From a virus (taxonomy: Duplodnaviria; Heunggongvirae; Uroviricota; Caudoviricetes), in IMG/VR virus record IMGVR_UViG_3300050500_000527: 64,000 bases of DNA. One strand, 5' to 3'. The position numbers and the translations under genes were made by a program. Below, one piece after another: positions 2,037-47,107 of this stretch (position 1 is its first letter; each line of letters opens with the position of its first letter). Below the pieces are notes generated by a model. It was given only the letters and a program-made list of their open reading frames with translations. It had not been told where the DNA came from and made no database searches.

Positions 2037-2357
2037 ATGCCCTACGCCGACCGTCCTGGCCCGCCCGTCACCTACCATTACGACGAGAGCCCAGAAGCCC
2101 TGGCCAAGTTGGACGCGGCCGTGCTGTACAGGCTCTGGGAGCTCTGCAACGCCCTGGGCACGGATACAGTCGGCCATTCCGCTCTGGCGGGCCGCCTCCG
2201 AGATTATTGCACGATATACCGGCTTGTGCGTTCGCTTGAGCGCTTGTGCCAGGCTGGGCGCATCACGAGCGATGGTGATATCCTGAGTCCTGTGGGAAGA
2301 AAGAAGCGCACCTATACCTTAATCGAATGGGGAGAATTACCCCCTAAAGCCTTATAA
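2037..2357 (+). CDS. hypothetical protein (106 aa)
   Basis: ATG 2 nt after the previous stop; followed by an AT-rich 100-bp intergenic region. Confidence 0.4.
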   Translation: MPYADRPGPPVTYHYDESPEALAKLDAAVLYRLWELCNALGTDTVGHSALAGRLRDYCTIYRLVRSLERLCQAGRITSDGDILSPVGRKKRTYTLIEWGELPPKAL

Positions 2358-2460
2358 TTATTCAACTAGTAGGCTAAATGTCTCGACACTACCTAGGGTT
2401 TAATAACTTATAGGTTATACGTCCAGCCCAGGGAGAAACCGTGCAACGCTCCTGTTTTAC

Positions 2461-2709
2461 ATGGTGCAACACATGACACGCAATCCTCGCCTGGCCACTC
2501 TTTCTAACCTCTACCGCACTGCCAATCCATTGCAACGTCAGTCAGCCCTGAAACGCGCTATGAGAGAGTTCGCGGCGCTGCGGGGCTATATAACGGTGGG
2601 GGAATATCAAGCTGCAGTAAAGCTCCGCACTTACGCAATCTTGGTGGAAGATGACACCGCACGGCGCAATCGAAGATATCGGGCGGATCCGGAAAGCCCT
2701 CGGCTCTAA
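2461..2709 (+). CDS. hypothetical small protein (82 aa)
   Basis: ORF directly after the AT-rich region 2358-2460; overlaps the next gene by 59 nt. Confidence 0.3.
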   Translation: MVQHMTRNPRLATLSNLYRTANPLQRQSALKRAMREFAALRGYITVGEYQAAVKLRTYAILVEDDTARRNRRYRADPESPRL

Positions 2710-3499
2710 TCTGGCAAAAGTGTTCGACGTTAATCTCCTGGAGAACGTCGAACGACTTCTGCCGATGGCCGCGCACTTCGATTATGGCAAGACAGACTTC
2801 GATGTCACCCATACCGAGTTTGGCCAAGACCTGTTTAAGCGCGGCTTGTTCCGGCTGCCGTTCGACGTAGTGTTCTTCACTTCTAACATGATGCCGCGTT
2901 CCGCCATTTTGGCCACGCAGCGCGTTGCCCAGGCGCCCGAGTTGGGCGAAGAACAACTGTTCTTATTTACCTTCGGCCCGACAATGTTAGGTGACGACCC
3001 CGCCGACTGTGTTGAGCTCGAGGGCCTCCCGCTGATGGCCGCGGGCATTGATAGTAACCACCAGGTTCGTTGGAAGTGCTTGACCTCGGAAGGCTACCAT
3101 CGCCGCCGTACTACGGGTGAGATGTACAAGGATAAAGACTTCGAGGAGTCCGTGGACAAAGCGGTCAACTTTCTGCTCGGTGCAACGGCGCTGCTCATGA
3201 GCAAGGAGGTGGTCACGGAGCATATTCCGGCGCCGGACAAGCTCAATAAGCGCCGCGCCCAGAAAGGTAAGCCGCCGCTCGTTGACCGGCACGTCGTTCG
3301 CCTCAATCCAGCGGCGCATCGTACCCTGGGCACGGGCACTCCTATAGACGGCCGCGCCTCGCCCCGTATGCACTGGCGCCGCGGGCATTTCCGCCATATC
3401 CGCGAAGACCTTATCCTCCCCATCCCGCCGACTATCGTAAATGCCCAGGAAGGCGTCACCCCGCGGCTCAAGACCTACCTACTAAGCGGGGCAAAATGA
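2651..3499 (+). CDS. hypothetical protein (282 aa)
   Basis: Long ORF in the codon-biased frame; start uncertain (alternative ATG at 2762). Confidence 0.4.
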   Translation: MTPHGAIEDIGRIRKALGSNLAKVFDVNLLENVERLLPMAAHFDYGKTDFDVTHTEFGQDLFKRGLFRLPFDVVFFTSNMMPRSAILATQRVAQAPELGEEQLFLFTFGPTMLGDDPADCVELEGLPLMAAGIDSNHQVRWKCLTSEGYHRRRTTGEMYKDKDFEESVDKAVNFLLGATALLMSKEVVTEHIPAPDKLNKRRAQKGKPPLVDRHVVRLNPAAHRTLGTGTPIDGRASPRMHWRRGHFRHIREDLILPIPPTIVNAQEGVTPRLKTYLLSGAK

Positions 3500-3864
3500 A
3501 CGTCTACCGGGTAGAGCGCCCGGACGGCGCCGGGCCATATCGTATCCCTACGCCCATGGGGTCCACTTCTATCCGGGTGTACTTGCACCCGGACGGTTAT
3601 GACAATCGCCGCCACCCAATGTGCCCCTTAGCTGCGACTAGGGTTGTTTACCCCGGCAGCCCTTGGATATATGGCTTCCCTAGCCGCACCGCTTACCGCA
3701 GGTGGTACGCTACGCCCTGGGAGCGGGGCGTGCTCGCCGCGTTCGGCTTTACCCTCGCCACCTATTCCGTGCCGCATCAGTACTACGACCGCATTGTGCC
3801 GGAGCAATGCGTGTTCCACCGAAAATATGCGGTGCTCGTTCGCCGCCAGGAGATTCGTATATGA
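3496..3864 (+). CDS. hypothetical protein (122 aa)
   Basis: ATGA start/stop overlap with the upstream gene at 3496-3499. Confidence 0.4.
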   Translation: MNVYRVERPDGAGPYRIPTPMGSTSIRVYLHPDGYDNRRHPMCPLAATRVVYPGSPWIYGFPSRTAYRRWYATPWERGVLAAFGFTLATYSVPHQYYDRIVPEQCVFHRKYAVLVRRQEIRI

Positions 3865-4325
3865 AGCCGACCCGCCGTTCCTTCCTAAAAGTCCTCGGCG
3901 CCGCGCCGCTGGCCGCGAATGCCGCGCGCACTAAAGTCATGGAACTCGTTGGGGCTCAATCTATCGGCGCTGGGGCCGAGGTCGTTAACATGGGCATGAC
4001 TTCGCCCGGTCCTTATTCGCGGCCCGAGCCCGCAAGCCCCGTTGGTTACAACAATGAACCTTACAAAGTCGGCCGCCGCTTGGTCGCGTGGATCAAGCAG
4101 GTCGGCTGGCCAGAATGGCGGAAGCACGAGGTGCGCCTCATAGCGCGTCAGGGGCGGTTGATAGACCCGGACCTCGCCGCCCTACGGTCTATCTCGCCTT
4201 CAGCGATGTTGCGCCTGCAGTGGGCTCGGAACGAGGCGCGCGCCTATGAAGGCATCCTGGGCAATATTGCTCGGGAGGAAGAGCGCAGCGAATGGCATGA
4301 GAAGAATCGCGTAGGGTGGTTCTAG
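3862..4325 (+). CDS. secreted protein with twin-arginine (Tat) signal peptide (154 aa)
   Basis: N-terminus MKPTRRSFLKVLGAAPLAANAA matches the Tat motif S/T-R-R-x-F-L-K plus a hydrophobic stretch and an A-x-A cleavage site. ATGA overlap with the upstream gene. Confidence 0.5.
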
Positions 4326-4347
4326 CGGCGCGCGCCCTCGCCTTACC

Positions 4348-4397
4348 TAGTGGGGGAGCTTACACTGAGGAGCATCAAGTTGCGCTGCTCCTCCCCC
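4348..4397. terminator. GC-rich inverted repeat TAGTGGGGGAGC...GCTCCTCCCCCACTA between convergent genes (candidate bidirectional terminator or repeat element)
   Basis: 12/15-bp arms around a roughly 22-nt loop that contains a second nested repeat GAGGAGCA/TGCTCCTC. Core TAGTGGGGG recurs at 6909-6953. Confidence 0.45.
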
Positions 4398-4411
4398 ACT
4401 AACCGCTAAAC

Positions 4412-5002
4412 TTATTTCGCCACCTCCGAATAAAACCGCGAAGAGCTTACCGGGTTATCTCCGACCTCGACGCTAGCCTGGGCGAGCAGGTCATGCACCC
4501 GCCGTACCAGGCTAGCGTCGCCGTGGCGCAACACCTCCAGCTGGGCGAGCTTTTCCGGCACGTAAATGGCGGCGAAAGGCAGGTCGTTGGCCACGATGGA
4601 AGGCACGTTGTCCAGGATGTCAGCGAGCTTAATGGTGGCGCCCGCGGGGGAACACTTCGTGATGTGGGCGAGGTCAATGGCCGCTCGCGCTTTGCGATTG
4701 CCGTCCTTGGGCTGGGCGACGTTCGTTACCTGATCCACAAGCGCGGAAACGTCGGCGCCAAACTTCCGAGTGAGTTCGCCCAGGCTGACACCGCAGTCCT
4801 CGACTACGTCGTGCAACACGCCCGCGATGAGCACGGCGTAAGGCATCCCCCGCATCGCCAGGGTGTGGCTAACGCGCAGCGGATGCAGGATGTAGGGCTC
4901 GCCAATATGCTTCCGAACCTGGCCCGCATGCGCCTCAGTGGCGAAGATCACTGCGGCGAGCAGGTCGCTCTCGCTCAGCGGATGGGTGGGGTAATGGGTC
5001 AT
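4412..5002 (-). CDS. HD-domain (p)ppGpp/(p)ppApp hydrolase, small alarmone hydrolase (SpoT/Mesh1-like)
   Basis: Motif AHAGQVRKHIGEPYILHPLRVS...VLHDVVEDCG is the canonical RelA/SpoT HD hydrolase signature (H...HP...HD...ED). 196 aa, the size of stand-alone small alarmone hydrolases. Start ATG overlaps the upstream stop (ATGA). Confidence 0.7.
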   Translation of the reverse strand: MTHYPTHPLSESDLLAAVIFATEAHAGQVRKHIGEPYILHPLRVSHTLAMRGMPYAVLIAGVLHDVVEDCGVSLGELTRKFGADVSALVDQVTNVAQPKDGNRKARAAIDLAHITKCSPAGATIKLADILDNVPSIVANDLPFAAIYVPEKLAQLEVLRHGDASLVRRVHDLLAQASVEVGDNPVSSSRFYSEVAK

Positions 5003-5211
5003 TTGGCGTTCTCCTTGGGTGGTGGTGGGGCAATCATGATGTAGTGCGCGAGCAGCAGCTTGATCAGTTCTTCGAGCTGTGGGGCGTTGAATTCGATCCA
5101 TTGGCCCGGTACGTCGTTGAGGTGCATCTGCACCCGAATAACGTTGCGCTCCGTGACGTGCTCGGCTGAGATGGAGTTGATTGGGCTGGGCGTGACTTCT
5201 TCGCAGGCCAT
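4999..5211 (-). CDS. small protein (70 aa) translationally coupled to the HD hydrolase
   Basis: GGAGG ribosome-binding site 6 nt upstream of ATG at 5211; stop TGA overlaps the hydrolase ATG. Confidence 0.45.
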   Translation of the reverse strand: MACEEVTPSPINSISAEHVTERNVIRVQMHLNDVPGQWIEFNAPQLEELIKLLLAHYIMIAPPPPKENAK

Positions 5212-5357
5212 TGGCCCCTCCTAATGCCTCAGCGCCGCTTATTGGGCTGCGCTGAGGACTTGGGCTAACCGCATCTAGAGGCGGTTTAGGTGGGGGACCG
5301 CCGTGCCGAAGCAGAGCCCACAGGCTATCCCCTCAATTTCGGTCACTCGGGGAACGG

Positions 5358-5810
5358 CTAGACGTCTAATCCGTGGGGAGAAGTACCTGGCGCGCATTTC
5401 TCCCAGCTCTCCCGGACTGAAAAAGTGCCTGTATCGCGCAAATTGGTCAGCAGGTCGATGACAATCGCCTTTTGCTGCACGCGGGTCAGCACAGTATCAA
5501 ATGCGACAAGATGATCGCGATTGTTGCTTGCATATTCCTTACGAAATAAGAACAAGGCGTGGCGTTGCTCGTTGTTCAGGCCGAGGTCGAGCGCGGCTTG
5601 TGTCAAATCTTCGGGTGGGCGGCCTTGGAGTTTATTCGCCCAGCCTGCCATGCAGTAAGCCGTGCCGCAAGGTTCATCTGCCCTGGGCGTAAAGCGGATA
5701 TACATCTCGGGGCTGATCTCGTGCTTATATTCGCTCATGCGCAGCAAACCTTCCGGTGCAGAAATCGCTGCAATCATAGCGTTGATTAGGTTGACTTTAT
5801 TGAGCAGCAC
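5358..5810 (-). CDS. hypothetical protein (150 aa; start may be internal at 5777 or 5738)
   Basis: ORF in the codon-biased frame; contains PCGTAYCMAGWA; no family recognised. Confidence 0.35.
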   Translation of the reverse strand: MLLNKVNLINAMIAAISAPEGLLRMSEYKHEISPEMYIRFTPRADEPCGTAYCMAGWANKLQGRPPEDLTQAALDLGLNNEQRHALFLFRKEYASNNRDHLVAFDTVLTRVQQKAIVIDLLTNLRDTGTFSVRESWEKCAPGTSPHGLDV

Positions 5811-6015
5811 GGATTCCCTCCTCGATCATAGAAGCCGTATTGGCCATCTGTTTAAGCCGCTCGGAGCGCAACTTCGATAAGCGCCGATCCAACTCACGGG
5901 CGGCGGCGAGGTCTTCTTCGTGGGTCATTCGTCCGCCCAGGGCTTTCAGTATGAGCAGCAGGTCTTCGTTCTCGATATCAATCGTCCAGACCAGGCGGCT
6001 CTTAAGGTCAGGCAT
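5797..6015 (-). CDS. hypothetical small helical protein (72 aa)
   Basis: Charged, coiled-coil-like sequence; immediately downstream of the intrinsic terminator at 6040-6075, so it probably has its own promoter. Confidence 0.35.
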   Translation of the reverse strand: MPDLKSRLVWTIDIENEDLLLILKALGGRMTHEEDLAAARELDRRLSKLRSERLKQMANTASMIEEGIRAAQ

Positions 6016-6039: not shown

Positions 6040-6075
6040 AAAATAAAAGTGGCCGCCGAAGCAGCCACTCAATAA
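6040..6075 (-). terminator. rho-independent terminator (minus strand)
   Basis: Minus-strand reading: AGTGGC-tgcttcggcg-GCCACT followed by TTTATTTT, directly after the stop of gene 6091-6414. Confidence 0.55.
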
Positions 6076-6695: not shown

Positions 6696-6721
6696 TGCTT
6701 CTCTCCCCTTCACTGCAACAA

Positions 6722-6752
6722 ACCTATACCAACACCCCGCAGAAGTAAAGCC
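6722..6752 (-). promoter_or_regulatory. promoter copy C: GGCTTTACTTCTGCGG-N8-TATAGG (half-palindrome version)
   Basis: The 16-mer GGCTTTACTTCTGCGG is identical to the one at 27074 and drives the minus-strand cassette 6695 down to 4412. -35-like TTTACT and -10-like TATAGG are present. Confidence 0.45.
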
Positions 6753-6908
6753 TTAAAAGAGCACAGCGCGTGGCAAATCGCTAGGCTATAGTGGCCGGGC
6801 CGGGAGTTCTTTAAGCTCCGTTTCTCTTCACCTAGGGGTCACCACCTTCGGTTGGAGCTTTCCTCGTCGCTGCTCCCGGCAGCAGACCTTTGACGCATAG
6901 ACGGCACG

Positions 6909-6953
6909 CCCCCACTAAGCCTAGGCCACCCTGCGCCGAAAGCTTAGTGGGGG
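6909..6953. repeat. perfect 12-bp inverted repeat CCCCCACTAAGC/GCTTAGTGGGGG with 21-nt spacer
   Basis: Seen directly in the sequence; shares the TAGTGGGGG core with the 4348-4397 hairpin. Lies in the divergent intergenic region. Confidence 0.5.
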
Positions 6954-7081
6954 TTCTTGCATGTACAGGGTAAGTGTACGTGAAGATGCCCAGCCGGTTA
7001 GCAGCTGGGCTTTAGTTCGTCATTTACCAACGAACACGGTTGAACATACTTGCACTGCTCAACAGGAGGCTAGCTTACATC

Positions 7082-7505: not shown

Positions 7506-7880
7506 ATGGACAGTCGCCGCCTTACCATCGAAGAAGCTGATGCTCGCATCGCCGCGAAGCCGAACCGAGTGACCGTGGAGGGTATGGCGGCGCGGATCAA
7601 GGAAGTCGACTACAAGGTGTACGGCAAGTTGACCATTTGCTTTATTACCATGATCAACGATTTTACTGTAACTGGGGAGAATGCCTGCGTGGATCCGGCG
7701 AATTTCGACGCTGAGGTCGGCCGGACTTATGCATATCAGAATGCCTTCGAGAAGCTCTGGCCGCTCGAGGGTTACTTGCTTGCAGAGCAGCGTTACGCCT
7801 ATAAACTCATTGAGGCTACTAGGAACGACCCCCAATGTTCAACCCCACGAAGTTTCCCTTCTTCCGAGTCGATCATCTAA
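7506..7880 (+). CDS. N4 Gp49 / Sf6 gp66-like phage protein (about 124 aa)
   Basis: Segment LTICFITMINDFTVTGENACVDPANFDAEVGRTYAYQNAFEKLWPLEGYLL resembles the conserved core of the Gp49 family (PF13876) as remembered. Start uncertain (TTG at 7440 is an alternative). Confidence 0.4.
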   Translation: MDSRRLTIEEADARIAAKPNRVTVEGMAARIKEVDYKVYGKLTICFITMINDFTVTGENACVDPANFDAEVGRTYAYQNAFEKLWPLEGYLLAEQRYAYKLIEATRNDPQCSTPRSFPSSESII

Positions 7881-12414: not shown

Positions 12415-13050
12415 ATGAAAAAGCTAGGCCGCCACCATACGCGGGTTTCCGTAGAGGCCCCCGTACGGAAGCCGAAGCAGGTCCGCGGCCAGATGAAAGC
12501 CTTTAGCCCGGCGGATGTCACGAACATTGAACAACGGCTACAGGAAAACGGCAGCCTCGTAGATATCCGCGACCTAGCGCTATTCCGCGTGGCTATTGAC
12601 ACGATGCTCCGCGGCTCAGACGTCATAGCCCTAACAGTGGGCACCGTTCAGCCCAGGGCGGACGCGCCGCTCGTGGAAGAGTTCTGGTGGAGCCAGCGGA
12701 AGACCGCGCGGGCCGTCCAGTGCCACCTCAGCGAGCGCACTCGCACTGCCCTGGGCGCCTGGCTCGCCGCGTTTTGGGACGCCTACACGCCCAACGACCG
12801 GGTGTTCAATATCTCCGATCGGCAGTTCCGCAATCGCATTAAGCTGCTGGCCGGATATGCGGGGCACGACCCGCGGCTCTATAGCGGGCATAGCACCCGG
12901 CGCACGCTCCCCAAGCAGATTTATGCCCAGGAACGCAACCTGGCCGCGGCGCGCCTACTACTCGGCCACACGTCGATCGGCGCGACAGCAGAATATTTGG
13001 GCGTAGAGCGTGAAGACGCGAAAGAAGCTTGGAAGAGGAACGTGCTATGA
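12415..13050 (+). CDS. tyrosine recombinase (phage integrase family, short catalytic-domain-only form, 211 aa)
   Basis: C-terminal LLGHTSIGATAEYLGV corresponds to the LGH...Y catalytic tyrosine motif. Upstream RDLALFRVAIDTMLRGSDVIALT carries the conserved arginine box; HSTRRT carries the His-x-x-Arg. Confidence 0.6.
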   Translation: MKKLGRHHTRVSVEAPVRKPKQVRGQMKAFSPADVTNIEQRLQENGSLVDIRDLALFRVAIDTMLRGSDVIALTVGTVQPRADAPLVEEFWWSQRKTARAVQCHLSERTRTALGAWLAAFWDAYTPNDRVFNISDRQFRNRIKLLAGYAGHDPRLYSGHSTRRTLPKQIYAQERNLAAARLLLGHTSIGATAEYLGVEREDAKEAWKRNVL

Positions 13051-39588: not shown

Positions 39589-39789
39589 ATGGCGTTTACT
39601 TTCACTGAACAGGTAAAACAAATTCTTCGTGCCTCGGGCTTCACCGAAGCTGAAATTCGCACTCAGGAAGTGCGCACCGCCCAGGGCATGAACCAGAGTA
39701 AACGCCCTGACGGAGCGGAACCGGGCATTGAATTGCCCGAGCGCTTTACTGGCAAGCCAGAAGACCTCCCTAAAGTTTTTCAAAATTAA
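39589..39789 (+). CDS. small protein (66 aa) encoded antisense to the structural operon, low-GC codon usage
   Basis: GGAG ribosome-binding site 9 nt before ATG; own TATAAT box; locally AT-rich (about 48 percent GC); 3-prime end overlaps the stop of the giant gene convergently. Confidence 0.45.
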   Translation: MAFTFTEQVKQILRASGFTEAEIRTQEVRTAQGMNQSKRPDGAEPGIELPERFTGKPEDLPKVFQN

Positions 39790-42700
39790 TCTCCTCAAGC
39801 TCCTGCAACCAAATATCGGTGCGCGGGTCACCATATGTGTCTGCGCCGCTATCGTCGATATGCGTGATTAAGAAGTGGCGTTCCGTCGGGAAGAGCACTT
39901 CTTTTTCAGACTGATGCGAGGAGAGTTCCTCGATATTCCGTCCGGTTAGGGACTGGATATGCAACTTTACCTTACCGCTGAAGCTGTTCGTCTTGTCGTA
40001 ACTGGTCGACCAGAACGCGGGCGTGACGATTATCCGGCCAGGCTTCCACTTCGCGAGCTCCTCCGCGTCGAGATCTTGGCCGCGATAAACCTCGCCGGTG
40101 AAGGGCGGTAACTTCTCTAGGGCACTTTCCAGCAGCTCCGCGTAGCTCAACCAACGCAGGCGTTCCGTGCCCAGAGCGAGCGGGTCGGAACGACCGGCCT
40201 TCTTGTCCTGGCGCAACTCACGGTTAATGTCGTCGGAGTGGTCGCCCGTATAGGCGTAGATCGCGGCAAACTCTTCCGCACTAAGGCCGTGCCGCTCAGC
40301 GGCGTCATTTCTGTAGTTTTCATCGAAGTCGTAAACAGATTGCAGCGCCTTTTTACGTCGTTCTTGGGACGAACTTAGCTTTTGGAAAAAGCGATGGAAC
40401 TTGTTGGCGAGGTTGTGTTTACGCTGCAAGGCGTAATCTAGAAAAGCGTCGCGGTTTTTCGGGCGGCCCTTAAAGCGCGCTTCGGCATAAGGCCGGATCA
40501 TGCCCAGGTAGGCTTCGTCCGTGAGCCCGTTCTGCAACGTGTTGATCGCCTCATAGGCCGGTTCGAAGAGCTTATTGTCGACTTCGGCGCGACCTTCTTC
40601 GACTGCCTGTTTCAGGCCGTAGAACCGGACGTTGAGCTGGCTCTTCTTCCGCTCAAGTTCGCTTATCTCCTTTGCGGAAAGCATGCCCGCTTCCGGATAA
40701 AGATTACGGACCTGTTGGAAAAACGCTGGAAATTCGGAGCGGGGCTTTGACCGCACATGGTCAAGAATAAAGTCCCAAAGGCTATTGTCTGGCCGAATTT
40801 CTGGTAGGCGGCCCGCATTCAGTGCGTCGTCATAGCGTGCGGTGAGCGCATAACGGACCGCGCTTTCCGCGCTACGCATCGCATTGTAAACGGGCGTTTC
40901 GTACTCTGCTTTCAGTGCCGGGATTTGTAAATCCTCGGCCTTCACCTTATTGGGGTCAGCGTTTTCTAACAGGTCGGCTTGCTCAGCCGTAATCGCGCGA
41001 CCTTCTTCGTTGCCGAGCTGCTCTCCGGCGCGGCGTAACACGTCCGCCATAAAGCCATTCACCGCTTCATAAGTCGAAGCAGCGAGCTCGTTCTTCTCCT
41101 TGTTGTAGCCGTAGTCTCGCCAGTTCTCTAGAGTCTGCGGCGCGATTAGTGCAACGATTTTTCCATCCGGGAAGGTGACATGGTCGTAGCCCTGAGTGCG
41201 TAAGAACGCGGCGTTCGCCTCCCCTGCCGGGCCGCCAGTTTGAGCAAGGTAGCTATCGGTAGAAGGATAGAAGCCAAATTTCTCTTGTGCCTCCTCGGCG
41301 CTAATACCATTCTGCGGTGTAAAAGTTGTCCGCTGCAGGTCGGGCGGAAAGGATCTGTTCGCCCAGAGCATGGTTTGCTCTGGATCTTTCGAGATCAGGA
41401 AGGAACGCTCACCTTTCCCGCTAACCCGCGTCCACCAGTCATTCGGTTTCAGCGTCAGGGCTTCTTTAATGTCCCCTAGGAACCGCTGCTCGTATTTATC
41501 GAAAACTTCTTTGAGTGCAGATCTCACTTCCTTGATCGAGGGGTGGTCCCGGTCAGTTAGATCGGTAATGCGATTCCTCGTCGCCTGTTCGACTTCGTTT
41601 TTTGCTTCCCGCTGAGCGTTCAGGTTCTCAGTAACACTTTCAAGCTCTTCTTGGACGCGCTTAAATTCTGCCTCGTCTTCCGTGAGCTGTGCACCCCCCT
41701 GGGCAGTGATCTTTTTAACCACCCCATCGAGCTTCCCCTGGGTTAGGGCACGCCAGAGCTTATTGTAAATCGGCTCTTCTTCGCCGTACACCTCGTTGGG
41801 GTGGTAATCGGTATCCAGGCGGTCTTTGCCGATATATTTAAACGCCTGGCCTTTATCGATGCCGACCAGGCCCTTATCCGTAATCAGGAACTGGTTCGAG
41901 TGGCCGTCATGGTTGGAAATCAGCCAGTCCACCACGTGTTCACGCATGAGCGCAGTGATTTCTTGCGGCGTAAGCTCGCTCATCTTCGTGCCGCGCAGCG
42001 TCCCGCTATTGGGCAGCATCTCCTGCATGACGCCCAGGCGGCCGTTGAGGCTTTGCACCCAGATACGCGGTGCGTTCGGGTTTATGAGCCGCGAGATATG
42101 GCCACCAGCCGCTTCGCCATGCGCTGAGAAGGGGCGGTCCGGCAGGTTCGGCTTGAACATATACTCATTGCCTTCTTCGTCCTGCCAGATCTCCTTCGGC
42201 TTGGACCCGCCGCCCGCATTCCCGACGAAGGTGTAATTGCGGTCCGGCGCCGGGATTAGGTCATCGAAACTGAGCCCCGCGGGCACGCTAACGGCGGGCG
42301 CCGCCGTGGTATCCGGCGCTGTATCAATCGTTCCAGCGAAGTCGCGCATTGCGCGGGCGGTGGCCGCGTAACCTTCTTTCTCGTTAGCCGCTGCATTGTG
42401 GAGTAGATTGTCGATAACAGCCTGCTTAAAGGCCTGGGTTTTTACGACATCTGTGTAGGGGCCTTGGTCTTTGAAGACTTCGTTGTAGACAAATTGAATG
42501 CTGTCCCGGATGATCTTTTTAAGAGAGGAATTCAGCTGAGATTTATTCAGTGCCTCGGTGAGGGATTTGTGGGTCTTGGGGCTCGACGGAGCGAGCTCTT
42601 CGCCGGTTAGCGCATTCTTGGCAATTGCTTCGTTAACTTGCTTCTGCTGGACAGCAGTATTCTCGTTCGCCTGCTTCTTCAGCGTATTCGCGCCTTCGAA

Positions 42701-45700
42701 GAGCCCGTTCATCAATTTGATGAGGCTCTCCTTCACGGCCGGTTCCGTCGCATTAATCGCAGCGACGCCCAGCTGGGTCGCAACGCCATCCATTTTGATA
42801 TGCTCAATGGCGTAAGGCGTCTTTATTGAATTTACGGCGTCTTCGAACGCTTTTGCGATCAGCGGGCCTTGACTTTTGGCGGCGGCTTCCGCTTGGGTGA
42901 GCGAAGCGAAGCCATTCTGTCCCGGAGCAGCAGCCGGTGCTTTCGCCGAGACCATCTTCGTAACGGCGTCGATGAGCTTTTGCTGCGCTGCTTCTTCCGC
43001 CGCGCTCTTCGGCGCCGGTTCGATCGGCGTCCCACCCTCAATTTGGTGCAACGGCGTCCCGCCCAGCAGGTCCACCCCCTGGGCAATTGCCATCAACAAT
43101 TTATTGACTTCCGGCGCATTGGTCGCGCCTTGCATGCCCTTTGTGTATTGGAAGATTTTCTCGTAGAACGCCTGCTTAAATTCTGGTGTATCTGCTAGGC
43201 CTGACCACCCGACCTGGGGGTATTGCTTTTTAAAAGCGGCATGAACTTCTTTTAAAAGGCCCTTCGCCTGGTCAATCGCATTAATCGCGTCGGGGCCGCT
43301 ATATTTCTTAATTGCGTCCATCGCGGCGAAGACTGAGCCGGGCGTGCCGGTCTTCTTCGGCTGGGGCTCTGGCTCAGCGCTAGACTTAGAGCCCCATTTG
43401 CCCAGCAGGGCGGCGTCGGGCGCCGCGCCGCGGCCGGGCGCACTGATCGGCTCGGAGAACGCGCCGTTGTCAATCGCGTCCAGAATATCCCTAATTGGAG
43501 CAATCTGTTGCTCAGTCAGGCCCCCATGGCTATATAATTCGAGCATGTGGGCAACGGCTTCTTGATCCATTGCCTCGTCATAGTCCGGGCGGTCCTTATT
43601 GTACTCAGCGTAGAGTTCACGGATGGTCGGCGCGGACTCATAGTTTTCCGCGTAGGGGTCGCGCGTTTTGCGGGCGAAGTCCGCATAGCCCAGGCCCAGG
43701 ATGTTGAGGTCCGTCGCATGGCCAAGAAGCCGATTCCAGGCGCTAAGGGGCAAGTGCCCCTCTCGGCGGAGGGCATGAAGCAACTCATGCCGCAATACGC
43801 CCCGAAGTCGATCGCTGCCACTCTGAGCCGGATCAACCGGAAGAAGGAAAAGGCCGCTGGGGTTCCCGAAGCCGGGCGGCATGTAAAAGGCCCGAACGTC
43901 AGTTAGGTCTTCCCACACGCCTTCCATGGCGACTTCCTCGCCATTGGTGGTTTGGAAGAAAGCATGGATTAGTGGCTTACCGGCTTCGTCGAAGCCCGCG
44001 GGCTCGACGCGCGTCAATACGTTGCCCGGGATGGAGTTCGGTAGCGCGTCGCCCAGGGCGGCGAACGCCTCAAGGTGCGCATCGACGATGGCTTGCGGCA
44101 TCAGCACCGCGCGGCCCGCATTGAGCAGCTTTTTCGCCGTATCCGTAATCTGGTCGGCGTCCAACTCCGCGGAGAGCTCTACCGGCCGGGTTAGCGGGTT
44201 GCCAGGCTCAGTCGGCTTGCCGCTCGCCTTGAATGGCTTCTCTGGGAGTTCCTTCTTGGCCTCCTTCTTCGGGCTTTTCGCCAACATCTGCTGAAGGTTT
44301 TCCACCTCCAGTGCTTCCGGAGGTAGCCGTTGCAGGCCGCGGTTGTACAGGTCGGCCAGCGTGCCTAGGCGTTCCTGCTCCTGCGCCACGTATTCCGGCC
44401 CGCGGTCAATAACGGCCCGCGCTGTATAAGTGGCCTTATTAGCCTTGCCCGCGCGGGCAAGGTCCACGCCCGCATTTAGCTCATTCAACTGGCGCTGGTA
44501 GCTATTCCGGGTGCGCAGGATCTGCTTCGGGCTTAGATACATGCCATTCCAAGGTTGCCACCACTTTGCCACCGCGGGGTGGGAGCGGCTCAACATGGCA
44601 TAACCGTCCGGCAGTAAAATGCCCGAAGGCTCCAGCCGCTCACCTATTGCATTCTGGGCGGCCCGCATTAGCGCCATAGCGGCGCCGGAGTTCTGATATT
44701 TCGGGTTAACCTCGATTAGGGCTACGTTCCAACGACCGTCCGGCGCTTTTTCCAGCTCGATGCTACCCATCGCTGGGCCGAGTTGCTTGGCGGGTTGCTT
44801 AACCGCGGAGAGCTCCAGGTTTCCGGGGTTGCCGTGCACGACGAAATAGCGGCTATCTTCCGAGCCGCCCTTCGGCCGCCGCGGGTCAACCTGTTCCCGC
44901 ACCACGAGGTTGCCGAACTTAGTCAGCTTCGAGGGCTGCCATTGGGCTGCCTTCTTCAACTCCTCGGGGCTTTGCTTGAACCGGGCGAGTGCTTCCTTCG
45001 CGCCTTTGACCTTCGAGGCGTAGTAGTCCTGCCACAACTTACCTTGTTGCGGCGCCGTGGGATCCGCTTTAGCATTGGCCAGGCGCTCTTCAAAGTAGCC
45101 GAGCATCTCGGTGAGCTGCGGCTCGGTGTAGCGGCCGTAATCGAAGCGGGTGCGGCGGGGTTGAAGGGCTGCGTCGGCCTCCGGAGAAGCCTCAGGAGCT
45201 GCGCTCGGCCCTTCCGGCGCACCTACGGCGCCCGGCACTTCTTCGGTCGCCCTCGGCCCCTCCAGGGCCTTAAGCGGTGCGCCGAGTTCGCGCGTCGGCT
45301 CAACGACCGTGTAGCCTTCGCCGGGGACGAGGTCGATAAAGCTGAGCGGTTCACCGGGCGCACCCGAATAGGGCTGCCCGCTATACGGCGCTTCTACCTC
45401 GGGCGTAATTTCCGGGATGCGCGGTTCGGCCTTACCGCCGCCGAGCACCGCCCCCGCCCCGCCGCCCAAGATGGCGCCGAGCGCCGCGGACTCCGCGACG
45501 CCTTCCGTCGTTGCGCGGCTTGGGTCCGTGGTTTGCTGCGTGATAATGTTCTGACCGAGCTGGGAGCCGCCTTCTTGGAGCCCTTCCTCCAACGCGCCTT
45601 CCGCCGCTGCGGCCGCGCGGCCGAATAAGCCGCCGCCCGGCACGGAGCGGGTTAGCGTCTTCGCGATCGGAATAGCCTCGGTGAGGCCCAGGCCCGCATA

Positions 45701-47107
45701 GCCGAAGGTTTTCAGGATGCGGTCGAGCTCATCCACCTGGGCCGTATCGCCCGCGGCGCGCGCCTTATCCTGCGCGGCCTTAATTTCCCGCGTGGCTTCT
45801 TCGAAGCCTTGCGAGCCGGTCGCGCTGCCGCCCATCGCCGCAACCACGGCCGCCGCGGCTTTCGGCCCGGCCTTGAGCAGCGCGGTCACGGCGCCGCCGC
45901 CGTAGAAGGCCCCGAGCTGACCCACCCCCTGGGCGAGCTGCATGGAGAAATCGTTCTGGCGGGCTACGTCGCCGGGGAACATTCTGTTCACTTCCAGCTT
46001 CGTATCCTGAGCCCATTTTAGCAGCGCGTTATCGTCGACCTTCTCGTCGCCCAGGTAGCCCGCTACAATGCCCGCGAATTCCGGGATGCCCAGTACGGCG
46101 CCGCTAAAGCCTTGCACCACGTTCTCGGTGCCCGCCCGCAGGCCGGTTTTGGTTGGGAGCGGCGCGCGGCCTGCTTTCATCTCGTTGAGTGCGTTAAGGT
46201 CCGGTAGCGTGGCGCGCGTGGTATTGAGTTGCGACTGGTAGGCGCGCGTAGCGTAAGGCGAAGGCGACGCCTTAATCAGCGCCTCGAGGTTGGCAATGCG
46301 TTTCTGGCCGTTCTCGTAATCCTTGTATTGTTGATCCAGCCAGGCCTGCTGATCGGCCGGGCTCATCATACCGAAGCTCTCACCTAGCGTGCCCCGATAT
46401 GGCTTCGGCGCTTTCTCCCGCGCAGCCCAGTCGCGGGCATCCTGATCAAAATAGGAATGTAGCTTACCGTAGCGGTCTTCAGCTTCTTGCAGCGAGGAGT
46501 AAGAGGGGAATTTATCCCAGCCGACTGCCCCCACATTGCGGAAAATTCGCGCGCGTTGGGCGTCGTCGTTCATATCGTAAATTTTACCACCCCAGACAGT
46601 CGGGATGGTGTAGTAGCGGCCGTCTGCCTCTACCGTTGTTTGTAAAAGTGTGGAGCGCGATCCGTCCGGATTTGTGACGCCACCCGGTCCATAAAGGTTG
46701 GTGAGGTGGCGCTTGTAGAAGTCCTGTTCCTGCGGATTAAGTTTTAGCGCCGCATTGGCCGCGTCAAACTGTGATGGAGGCGCAAATTTGCGCGTGGGCT
46801 CCTTCACGTCCGCGGCGAACGCCTTAAAGGGGCTGTACTCGGCCTGCGGGGCCGGAGAAAAGGGAGCCCGTGGGCTTAGAACGGGCTCTGAGTCTAGCGT
46901 CGGCCAGGAGTTCGACGCTTCTCGCTTAGGCTCAGGTGCTAAAGGCGGAGCGAGGGCAGCGGGTTCGAGCTCCGTCCGCCAAGGATTCGTCGCTGGTGAG
47001 GGAGCGATTGGCTCAATCGTCGGCGCCCATCCGCCCGGCGTTGCCGCTGCGGGTGTCACTGTATTAAACAGGGCCGGATTAAAGAGCAGCTCATCCCAAT
47101 AACCCAT
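39770..47107 (-). CDS. giant multidomain virion (ejection/internal) protein, 2445 aa, with HipA/PI3-4K-like kinase motif, HExxH motif and C-terminal R-S-E ADP-ribosyltransferase domain
   Basis: Uninterrupted 7.3-kb ORF in the internal-virion-protein position of a T7-like layout.
- Kinase-like region (about 41800-42260): GGGSKP, YMFKP, DWLISNHDGHSNQFLI, GIDKGQAF.
- HExxH region (about 43700-43900): LRHELLHALRREGH.
- ADP-ribosyltransferase region (39773-40330): AIYAYTGDHSDDINRELR, VYRG, FWSTSYD, QSEKEV.
- N-terminal third is alanine/glycine/proline-rich low complexity. Confidence 0.7.
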   Translation of the reverse strand: MGYWDELLFNPALFNTVTPAAATPGGWAPTIEPIAPSPATNPWRTELEPAALAPPLAPEPKREASNSWPTLDSEPVLSPRAPFSPAPQAEYSPFKAFAADVKEPTRKFAPPSQFDAANAALKLNPQEQDFYKRHLTNLYGPGGVTNPDGSRSTLLQTTVEADGRYYTIPTVWGGKIYDMNDDAQRARIFRNVGAVGWDKFPSYSSLQEAEDRYGKLHSYFDQDARDWAAREKAPKPYRGTLGESFGMMSPADQQAWLDQQYKDYENGQKRIANLEALIKASPSPYATRAYQSQLNTTRATLPDLNALNEMKAGRAPLPTKTGLRAGTENVVQGFSGAVLGIPEFAGIVAGYLGDEKVDDNALLKWAQDTKLEVNRMFPGDVARQNDFSMQLAQGVGQLGAFYGGGAVTALLKAGPKAAAAVVAAMGGSATGSQGFEEATREIKAAQDKARAAGDTAQVDELDRILKTFGYAGLGLTEAIPIAKTLTRSVPGGGLFGRAAAAAEGALEEGLQEGGSQLGQNIITQQTTDPSRATTEGVAESAALGAILGGGAGAVLGGGKAEPRIPEITPEVEAPYSGQPYSGAPGEPLSFIDLVPGEGYTVVEPTRELGAPLKALEGPRATEEVPGAVGAPEGPSAAPEASPEADAALQPRRTRFDYGRYTEPQLTEMLGYFEERLANAKADPTAPQQGKLWQDYYASKVKGAKEALARFKQSPEELKKAAQWQPSKLTKFGNLVVREQVDPRRPKGGSEDSRYFVVHGNPGNLELSAVKQPAKQLGPAMGSIELEKAPDGRWNVALIEVNPKYQNSGAAMALMRAAQNAIGERLEPSGILLPDGYAMLSRSHPAVAKWWQPWNGMYLSPKQILRTRNSYQRQLNELNAGVDLARAGKANKATYTARAVIDRGPEYVAQEQERLGTLADLYNRGLQRLPPEALEVENLQQMLAKSPKKEAKKELPEKPFKASGKPTEPGNPLTRPVELSAELDADQITDTAKKLLNAGRAVLMPQAIVDAHLEAFAALGDALPNSIPGNVLTRVEPAGFDEAGKPLIHAFFQTTNGEEVAMEGVWEDLTDVRAFYMPPGFGNPSGLFLLPVDPAQSGSDRLRGVLRHELLHALRREGHLPLSAWNRLLGHATDLNILGLGYADFARKTRDPYAENYESAPTIRELYAEYNKDRPDYDEAMDQEAVAHMLELYSHGGLTEQQIAPIRDILDAIDNGAFSEPISAPGRGAAPDAALLGKWGSKSSAEPEPQPKKTGTPGSVFAAMDAIKKYSGPDAINAIDQAKGLLKEVHAAFKKQYPQVGWSGLADTPEFKQAFYEKIFQYTKGMQGATNAPEVNKLLMAIAQGVDLLGGTPLHQIEGGTPIEPAPKSAAEEAAQQKLIDAVTKMVSAKAPAAAPGQNGFASLTQAEAAAKSQGPLIAKAFEDAVNSIKTPYAIEHIKMDGVATQLGVAAINATEPAVKESLIKLMNGLFEGANTLKKQANENTAVQQKQVNEAIAKNALTGEELAPSSPKTHKSLTEALNKSQLNSSLKKIIRDSIQFVYNEVFKDQGPYTDVVKTQAFKQAVIDNLLHNAAANEKEGYAATARAMRDFAGTIDTAPDTTAAPAVSVPAGLSFDDLIPAPDRNYTFVGNAGGGSKPKEIWQDEEGNEYMFKPNLPDRPFSAHGEAAGGHISRLINPNAPRIWVQSLNGRLGVMQEMLPNSGTLRGTKMSELTPQEITALMREHVVDWLISNHDGHSNQFLITDKGLVGIDKGQAFKYIGKDRLDTDYHPNEVYGEEEPIYNKLWRALTQGKLDGVVKKITAQGGAQLTEDEAEFKRVQEELESVTENLNAQREAKNEVEQATRNRITDLTDRDHPSIKEVRSALKEVFDKYEQRFLGDIKEALTLKPNDWWTRVSGKGERSFLISKDPEQTMLWANRSFPPDLQRTTFTPQNGISAEEAQEKFGFYPSTDSYLAQTGGPAGEANAAFLRTQGYDHVTFPDGKIVALIAPQTLENWRDYGYNKEKNELAASTYEAVNGFMADVLRRAGEQLGNEEGRAITAEQADLLENADPNKVKAEDLQIPALKAEYETPVYNAMRSAESAVRYALTARYDDALNAGRLPEIRPDNSLWDFILDHVRSKPRSEFPAFFQQVRNLYPEAGMLSAKEISELERKKSQLNVRFYGLKQAVEEGRAEVDNKLFEPAYEAINTLQNGLTDEAYLGMIRPYAEARFKGRPKNRDAFLDYALQRKHNLANKFHRFFQKLSSSQERRKKALQSVYDFDENYRNDAAERHGLSAEEFAAIYAYTGDHSDDINRELRQDKKAGRSDPLALGTERLRWLSYAELLESALEKLPPFTGEVYRGQDLDAEELAKWKPGRIIVTPAFWSTSYDKTNSFSGKVKLHIQSLTGRNIEELSSHQSEKEVLFPTERHFLITHIDDSGADTYGDPRTDIWLQELEEINFEKL

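Follow-up and report, generated by a model that had tools for sequence, protein, structure and literature searches.

The 64,000-nt stretch of viral DNA analyzed here (IMG/VR record IMGVR_UViG_3300050500_000527; hereafter the window) carries a gene for a 196-aa HD-domain protein. Its start codon overlaps the stop codon of a 70-aa open reading frame (ORF), orf70. Based on profile matches and a predicted structure, the 196-aa protein is solidly identified as a stand-alone, single-domain hydrolase of the RSH type, i.e., a small alarmone hydrolase (SAH), with intact catalytic residues. Among characterized proteins, the PaSpo type of Salmonella phage SSU5 appears to be its nearest relative, and the protein is a divergent addition to the known family of phage SAHs. 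As judged from the homologous loci, orf70 is a small phage gene in its own right, specific to the lineage, and not a conserved or required partner of the SAH. A stand-alone PaSpo-like SAH, located next to an unrelated accessory gene in a variable slot, can with good confidence be considered the best explanation of this locus. Both genes are encoded on the minus strand, at exactly the positions that a preliminary description of the sequence had given (Table 1), and the translation of the SAH gene includes the motifs quoted there, AHAGQVRKHIGEPYILHPLRVS and VLHDVVEDCG.

The SAH protein matches the Pfam profile HD_4 (PF13328) with 64.1 bits (cutoff 27.2; E=1.6e-17) and PHROG 990, 'metal-dependent phosphohydrolase', with E=1.7e-32. 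The NCBIfam model TIGR00691 (spoT_relA) is matched at positions 1-122 only, i.e., in its hydrolase part (E=2.8e-26). No further Pfam domain, be it a synthetase, TGS or ACT domain, was found in the 196 residues, in agreement with the earlier view of a SpoT/Mesh1-type HD protein devoid of synthetase and regulatory domains. The best sequence matches in the PDB are Rel/SpoT hydrolase domains, Mesh1, RelH of C. glutamicum, the SAH of P. aeruginosa and a (p)ppApp hydrolase. In an alignment of the protein with 50 homologs, H25, Q28, R30, H40, H64, D65, E68, D128 and N132 are invariant, while D69 is conserved in at least 90% of the sequences. The catalytic residues align with those of Rel/SpoT hydrolase domains. 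We take the conserved residues to be those that bind the metal, form the ED catalytic pair and bind the substrate in the Rel(Seq) and Mesh1 structures.

The AlphaFold2 model of the protein (pLDDT 92.8, pTM 0.87) has low confidence in the last ~17 residues only. Foldseek matched it to 3nqw, 5vxa, 3nr1, 7qod, 6yvc and 7qoe with a probability of 1.00 and TM values of 0.72-0.84. On Mesh1, RelH and the SAH of P. aeruginosa (PaSAH) it superimposes over ~175-180 residues (TM 0.77-0.84, 24-30% identity), and Mesh1, which has 178 aa, is covered nearly end to end. An all-helical fold that is complete by itself, with no part missing, can be concluded from this superposition.

Homologs of the SAH protein are present in 289 phage genomes, as found by tblastn. 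The match to SSU5_099 of Salmonella phage SSU5 extends over the full length (38% identity, 108 bits, E 3e-34), while the match to the PVP-SE1 (PbcSpo) gene is restricted to residues 12-77 (46.6 bits). The protein is therefore PaSpo-like by its nearest characterized relative, an assignment made on this basis only and without the published subfamily hidden Markov models (HMMs) or tree (Jimmy et al., 2020). PaSpo is the SAH of SSU5 itself. Together with the SAH of PVP-SE1 (PbcSpo), it neutralized all five toxSAS classes, both acting as stand-alone genes (PMC7229694), so that the role of phage SAHs as counter-measures to toxSAS, which the preliminary description had brought forward, is documented. 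Detoxification by PaSpo consists of the removal of the tRNA modification (PMC11245113), and SAHs remove pyrophosphate from the CCA end of tRNA, by which aminoacylation is restored (bioRxiv 10.1101/2021.04.30.441581). The tested PbcSpo gene, gene 220 of PVP-SE1 (36782-37291 in L062), is to date annotated only as 'conserved hypothetical protein' in GU070616 and overlaps both its neighbors, by 37 nt and 4 nt.

orf70 is a real gene, as follows from its gene-like codon-position GC, its coding score and its protein homologs. The codon-position GC (0.61/0.35/0.75) is as in the other genes of the phage, with an inverted pattern for the antisense ORF, and orf70 ranks among the top quarter of the window genes in coding score per codon. 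Two relatives were detectable among about 15 billion proteins and in three collections of DNA (viral, metagenome and genome). The first is a 74-aa homolog, P0124, with 42% identity, which came up when 1.84 billion cluster representatives were searched exhaustively with HMMER (E 2e-5 library-wide, 7e-16 pairwise). The second is an 88-aa ORF in contig L060, found by a DNA-pattern scan of IMG/VR. The DNA-pattern scans of metagenome and genome contig collections gave nothing, and word-indexed searches, with the protein and with a two-sequence profile, returned the query itself and P0124 only. P0122, P0123 and P0125, also retrieved by the exhaustive HMMER search, were rejected as relatives: these are long tandem-repeat proteins with scores summed over the repeats, which are of the Ig/cadherin type or other types and match many unrelated Pfam families without a single significant stretch.

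The small family shares the core V-x-[IL]-[QE]-x-x-[LI]-x-x-x-P-G-x-W-[IV]-E-[FY]-[ND]-x-x-Q-L-[ED]-x-L. According to the AlphaFold2 model (pLDDT 75 overall, 87-90 in the core), orf70 folds into three strands (13-19, 24-31 and 34-42), a helix (43-60) and a disordered tail (61-70). A search with this fold gave no significant PDB match, the best ones (E 0.075; XRCC4 head and Chlamydia CT584-like fragments) being uninformative. orf70 has no match in Pfam, PHROG, NCBIfam or PADLOC and no similarity to known toxin or antitoxin families. The contig of P0124 (L055) additionally encodes a 48-aa protein that matches the Pfam family RMF (ribosome modulation factor; 1675-1821), which is unusual among an apparent run of small genes of phages or mobile genetic elements.

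The preliminary description confirmed above for the overlap between the orf70 stop and the SAH start, and for the good ribosome-binding site in front of orf70, had gone further and suggested an obligate two-component unit. In such a unit, orf70 would serve the SAH as regulator, chaperone, inhibitor or specificity partner and be made in a fixed ratio through translational coupling. The ATGA overlap and the strong ribosome-binding sites fit this idea, as do the hairpin-containing gap of 146 nt that separates the pair from the upstream gene, making an own bicistron possible, and the short ORF that abuts the HD start in the closest relatives too. Yet the two genes do not co-occur, which makes the obligate unit very unlikely. 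About 55 loci with HD homologs were compared (48 from IMG/VR, seven more from metagenomes and that of SSU5). Relatives of orf70 or P0124 were found by tblastn at none of them beyond the phage's own copies, and an HMM of the three family members gave no match when run on all HD loci translated in six frames. Conversely, neither of the two relatives of orf70 is near an HD gene. The 3.7-kb contig of P0124 has no HD gene, the gene downstream of P0124 included, and in 16.7 kb of contig L060 no HD homolog was detected by tblastn or with the HD profile. The L060 relative (2998-3264), which carries an additional Cys-rich C-terminus, has an ATGA overlap of its own at its end, with an unrelated Cys-rich gene of 166 aa (3261-3761) that lies ~1.2 kb upstream of the gene for the terminase large subunit. 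Thus, only one member of the family out of three, the window's own, is located next to an HD gene.

What is found upstream of the HD genes points in the same direction. At ~50 HD loci, the length of the nearest ORF upstream on the same strand varies between 41 and 849 aa, and clustering sorts these ORFs into 38 groups that are unrelated to each other. The HD gene of L003, the product of which is 64% identical to the SAH protein, is preceded by a different 70-aa ORF, and that of L001 (54% identical; contig of ~100.4 kb) by a 126-aa ORF; neither ORF can be aligned to orf70 at E<=100. The flanking genes, i.e., a Y00F-like gene, a gp49/66-like gene and four more, are syntenic in the closest relatives. 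Given these syntenic flanks and the unrelated upstream ORFs, the HD gene appears to be conserved beside a variable slot for accessory genes. The preliminary description had named two findings that would speak against its unit, namely that orf70 is not translated or that it is not conserved with hydrolase homologs. The lack of conservation is what is observed, while orf70 itself holds up as a gene. In two of the loci, other shared or neighboring genes were observed. A 72-aa gene two genes upstream of orf70 (5797-6015, minus strand) and a 94-aa gene upstream of the hydrolase in L003 (156-440) have the segment 'E-L-L-L-[IV]-L-K-A-L-G-G-R' in common, which was seen by eye and missed by tblastn at E<=1e-3. 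L057, a phage-like contig of ~70 kb, encodes an RtcB RNA ligase (2076-3266) two genes upstream of the SAH homolog P0013 (4001-4582, 43% identical), which hints at a tRNA/RNA-repair counter-defense neighborhood in some phages.

The junction itself does not require a functional link either. Of 71 same-strand junctions in the window, 20 are overlapping (28%) and six have the form ATGA, and about one third of the HD-upstream junctions in other phages overlap. As the share of overlaps is alike in the window and upstream of HD genes, there is no enrichment and the ATGA overlap is routine. ATGA-coupled pairs in packed phage genomes have the same 4-nt overlap and a Shine–Dalgarno sequence inside the upstream gene, and nothing sets the SAH junction apart from the other five in the window. 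The Shine–Dalgarno sequence of the SAH gene is situated within the C-terminal tail of orf70, which is disordered, not conserved and without counterpart in P0124. The 121 nt around it are no more structured than shuffled sequences (z=+0.21). The site should accordingly be accessible without upstream translation, which makes independent initiation plausible. Moreover, the SAH fold is complete alone, and PaSpo works alone. A weaker form of the partnership would be that orf70 was recruited in this lineage as a modulator of the SAH, for instance as a stoichiometric inhibitor, a timer or an adaptor for substrate specificity; the short ORFs at the three closest SAH starts, which differ from each other, could then be swappable partners, and the orf70 family would represent a tiny, previously undescribed family of phage proteins with a predicted beta3-alpha fold. 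The evidence in favor of such a modulator is the adjacency alone, and the chance that it applies is slim.

A toxin-antitoxin arrangement has also been considered. The SAH would then serve as the type IV antitoxin to a neighboring alarmone-synthetase toxin, or orf70 and the SAH would form a toxin-neutralizer pair, as the preliminary description had proposed as an alternative. SAHs of the PbcSpo group are indeed the antitoxins of FaRel toxSAS (PMC7229694), and the overlapping bicistronic layout resembles that of toxin-antitoxin genes. However, no RelA_SpoT synthetase domain (PF04607) was detected at E<=1e-4 in the 78 predicted proteins of the window, and the immediate neighbors have no Pfam, PHROG or PADLOC match. 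From the missing synthetase domain and the uninformative neighbors, it is concluded that a toxSAS-SAH module is not present in the window. Together with the lack of resemblance of orf70 to any known toxin or antitoxin family, and with a pair that is not conserved, this leaves the toxin-antitoxin arrangement extremely improbable.

Returning to the SAH as a stand-alone enzyme, a mechanism can be proposed by analogy with its family. H40, H64-D65 and D128 would provide the metal ligands of a metal-dependent HD active site, in which E68 and D69 would form the catalytic pair and R30 and N132 would contact the substrate. The enzyme would remove the 3′-pyrophosphate from (p)ppGpp or (p)ppApp, and may also clean 3′-CCA-pyrophosphorylated tRNA, as has been shown for other SAHs. 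During infection, RSH-type toxins or immune effectors of the host (toxSAS or CapRel-like) may in this way be neutralized and/or the stringent response may be blunted. Substrate range, biological target and operon structure are the parts of this proposal that we infer.

Alternatively, the main job of the SAH could be a metabolic take-over. Host (p)ppGpp would be degraded to stop the stringent shutdown of macromolecular synthesis, or another 3′-phosphorylated substrate would be used, e.g., NADPH, as by Mesh1. The fold and the catalytic residues are indeed as in (p)ppGpp hydrolases and Mesh1, and the NUDIX protein and the dCMP deaminase encoded in the window point to a remodeling of nucleotide metabolism. 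A role of this kind for phage SAHs has been proposed by authors of phage genome papers (PMC12846349), and Mesh1 is also an NADPH phosphatase according to work cited in a preprint (bioRxiv 10.1101/2021.04.30.441581). On the other hand, the take-over is compatible with a counter-defense role and does not exclude it, and the sole experimental phenotype of the nearest characterized relative is the neutralization of toxSAS. Metabolic take-over as the main job is possible but rather unlikely.

Several points weigh against the preferred explanation, i.e., a stand-alone PaSpo-like SAH beside an unrelated accessory gene. The sequence does not discriminate between substrates, and a preference for (p)ppGpp, (p)ppApp, pyrophosphorylated tRNA or NADPH is not readable from it. 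The counter-toxSAS role is a prediction for a host that may or may not carry toxSAS. The scan for synthetase toxins covers the 64-kb window and, of the ~36 kb of the phage genome outside it, ~5.6 kb (locus L004). Lastly, each of the three closest HD genes is preceded by some short ORF that abuts its start or overlaps with it, which leaves some room for a partner that evolves fast or can be swapped.

Six small genes of the same orientation follow one another from 6695 to 4412, the SAH gene being the last, with a divergent gap (6696-7081) at the other end. An intrinsic-terminator-like hairpin with a T-run (6047-6070, minus strand) between the 104-aa and 72-aa genes of this cluster suggests that the six genes comprise more than one transcription unit. 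The gap of 146 nt between a 150-aa gene and orf70 is structured, although not significantly so over the whole intergenic region (z=-1.8), and includes a GC-rich hairpin just upstream of the ribosome-binding site of orf70. A promoter scan of this gap did not reveal a sigma-70 consensus promoter. orf70 is probably co-transcribed with the SAH gene, and the dense packing that is ordinary for phage genes may couple their translation. On the other side of the SAH gene, the long hairpin between it and the convergent 154-aa gene (-40.9 kcal/mol, z=-2.29) was not called by the consensus terminator scan; it is likely a bidirectional transcript end. A 229-aa reading of the SAH gene, starting at an ATG at 5101 and overlapping orf70 out of frame, was rejected as unlikely because it lacks a Shine–Dalgarno sequence and because the N-termini of homologs align with the ATG at 5002. 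The convergent neighbor adjoins the hydrolase gene in L002 and L003 as well (45% identity), and its product has a weak N-terminal match to a twin-arginine (TAT) signal (E 0.0018, under the cutoff).

Table 1. Features at and around the SAH gene, in window coordinates.
Feature	Position	Strand	Details and basis
SAH gene (196 aa, single HD_4 domain, PaSpo-like)	4412..5002	-	ATG at 5002, stop at 4412-4414 (translation)
orf70 (70-aa ORF, small gene, predicted beta3-alpha fold, three-member family)	4999..5211	-	ATG at 5211, TGA at 5001-4999 (translation)
ATGA junction, SAH start codon over orf70 stop codon, 4 nt	4999..5002	-	sequence
Shine–Dalgarno AAGGAG of SAH gene, 8 nt before ATG	5011..5016	-	sequence
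Shine–Dalgarno AGGAGG of orf70, 5 nt before ATG	5217..5222	-	sequence
9-bp GC-rich hairpin CCUCAGCGC...GCGCUGAGG, no U-tract	5227..5257	-	fold of 5205-5360
Long hairpin between the convergent SAH gene and 154-aa gene, no T-run	4350..4399	.	fold of 4320-4420
154-aa gene, convergent neighbor of SAH gene	3861-4325	+	

That the SAH is phage-encoded, as first described, is confirmed by the gene content of the window, which marks the replicon as a real phage. A PHROG search identified a portal protein (E 2.5e-102), a large terminase and a virion structural protein, and Pfam matches among the 78 predicted proteins include P22_portal, Phage_capsid_3, SU10_adaptor, N4 gp49/Sf6 gp66 and the phage integrase family. 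Contigs of 100,595 and 100,719 bp, which begin at different points, encode the identical HD protein, as would fit a genome of ~100.6 kb that is circular or circularly permuted. Independent assemblies of the phage are identical to each other over 7.6-15 kb. In 50,697 deposited phage genomes, megablast gave no match for the 3 kb around the genes or for the 23-kb structural region. The batch Pfam scan of the window further revealed a NUDIX hydrolase, a dCMP/cytidine deaminase, an SPFH/Band 7 protein, DUF2303 and DUF932. The integrase-family protein is short (211 aa; 12415-13050, plus strand), and the gp49/66-like gene is located at 7506-7880 (plus strand). The structural region contains a single ORF of 2445 aa (39770-47107, minus strand), which was left out of the batch Pfam scan for its length, followed by ORFs of 818 and 522 aa. 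At the 5′ end of a long ORF (31319-32728), ARAGORN predicted a tRNA-Ser of 92 nt with anticodon CGA (31332-31423, plus strand); the gene call for this ORF begins at 31460, downstream of the predicted tRNA.

Phage SAHs are a recognized viral route to cancel RelA/SpoT-type toxins and alarmone signaling. The SAH described here adds a divergent PaSpo-like example (38% identity) from an uncultivated ~100-kb phage without DNA-level relatives in deposited phage genomes, and if its activity is borne out, it could widen the toolkit for detoxifying toxSAS during expression. It opens no new question. The useful outcome is a negative one: in a phage genome, overlapping start and stop codons cannot be taken as evidence that a gene and a neighboring small ORF function as a pair.

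Compared to known alarmone hydrolases, the best structural matches of the SAH protein are Mesh1 (human and Drosophila), RelH of C. glutamicum and PaSAH, all of which are single-domain (p)ppGpp/(p)ppApp hydrolases. In contrast to the SAH studied here, these are cellular and not viral, and their identity to it is below that of the phage protein PaSpo. The SAHs of the PbcSpo type, i.e., that of PVP-SE1 and the antitoxin ATfaRel of Cellulomonas marina, are HD-domain SAHs as well and neutralize toxSAS; ATfaRel restores the aminoacylation of pyrophosphorylated tRNA. Their similarity to the SAH protein is far weaker, as illustrated by the short PVP-SE1 match, and ATfaRel is part of a conserved bicistron with the FaRel toxin, whereas the window has no such toxin. 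PaSpo (SSU5_099) differs in its gene context: its gene is 91 nt away from the upstream gene and overlaps with the downstream gene instead. Although the two proteins are only 38% identical, and the neutralizing activity that has been shown for the SSU5 enzyme is a prediction here, PaSpo is likewise a single HD_4 domain of ~200 aa from a ~100-kb phage. It has the same catalytic residues, and the similarity between both proteins extends past the HD core into the C-terminal region.

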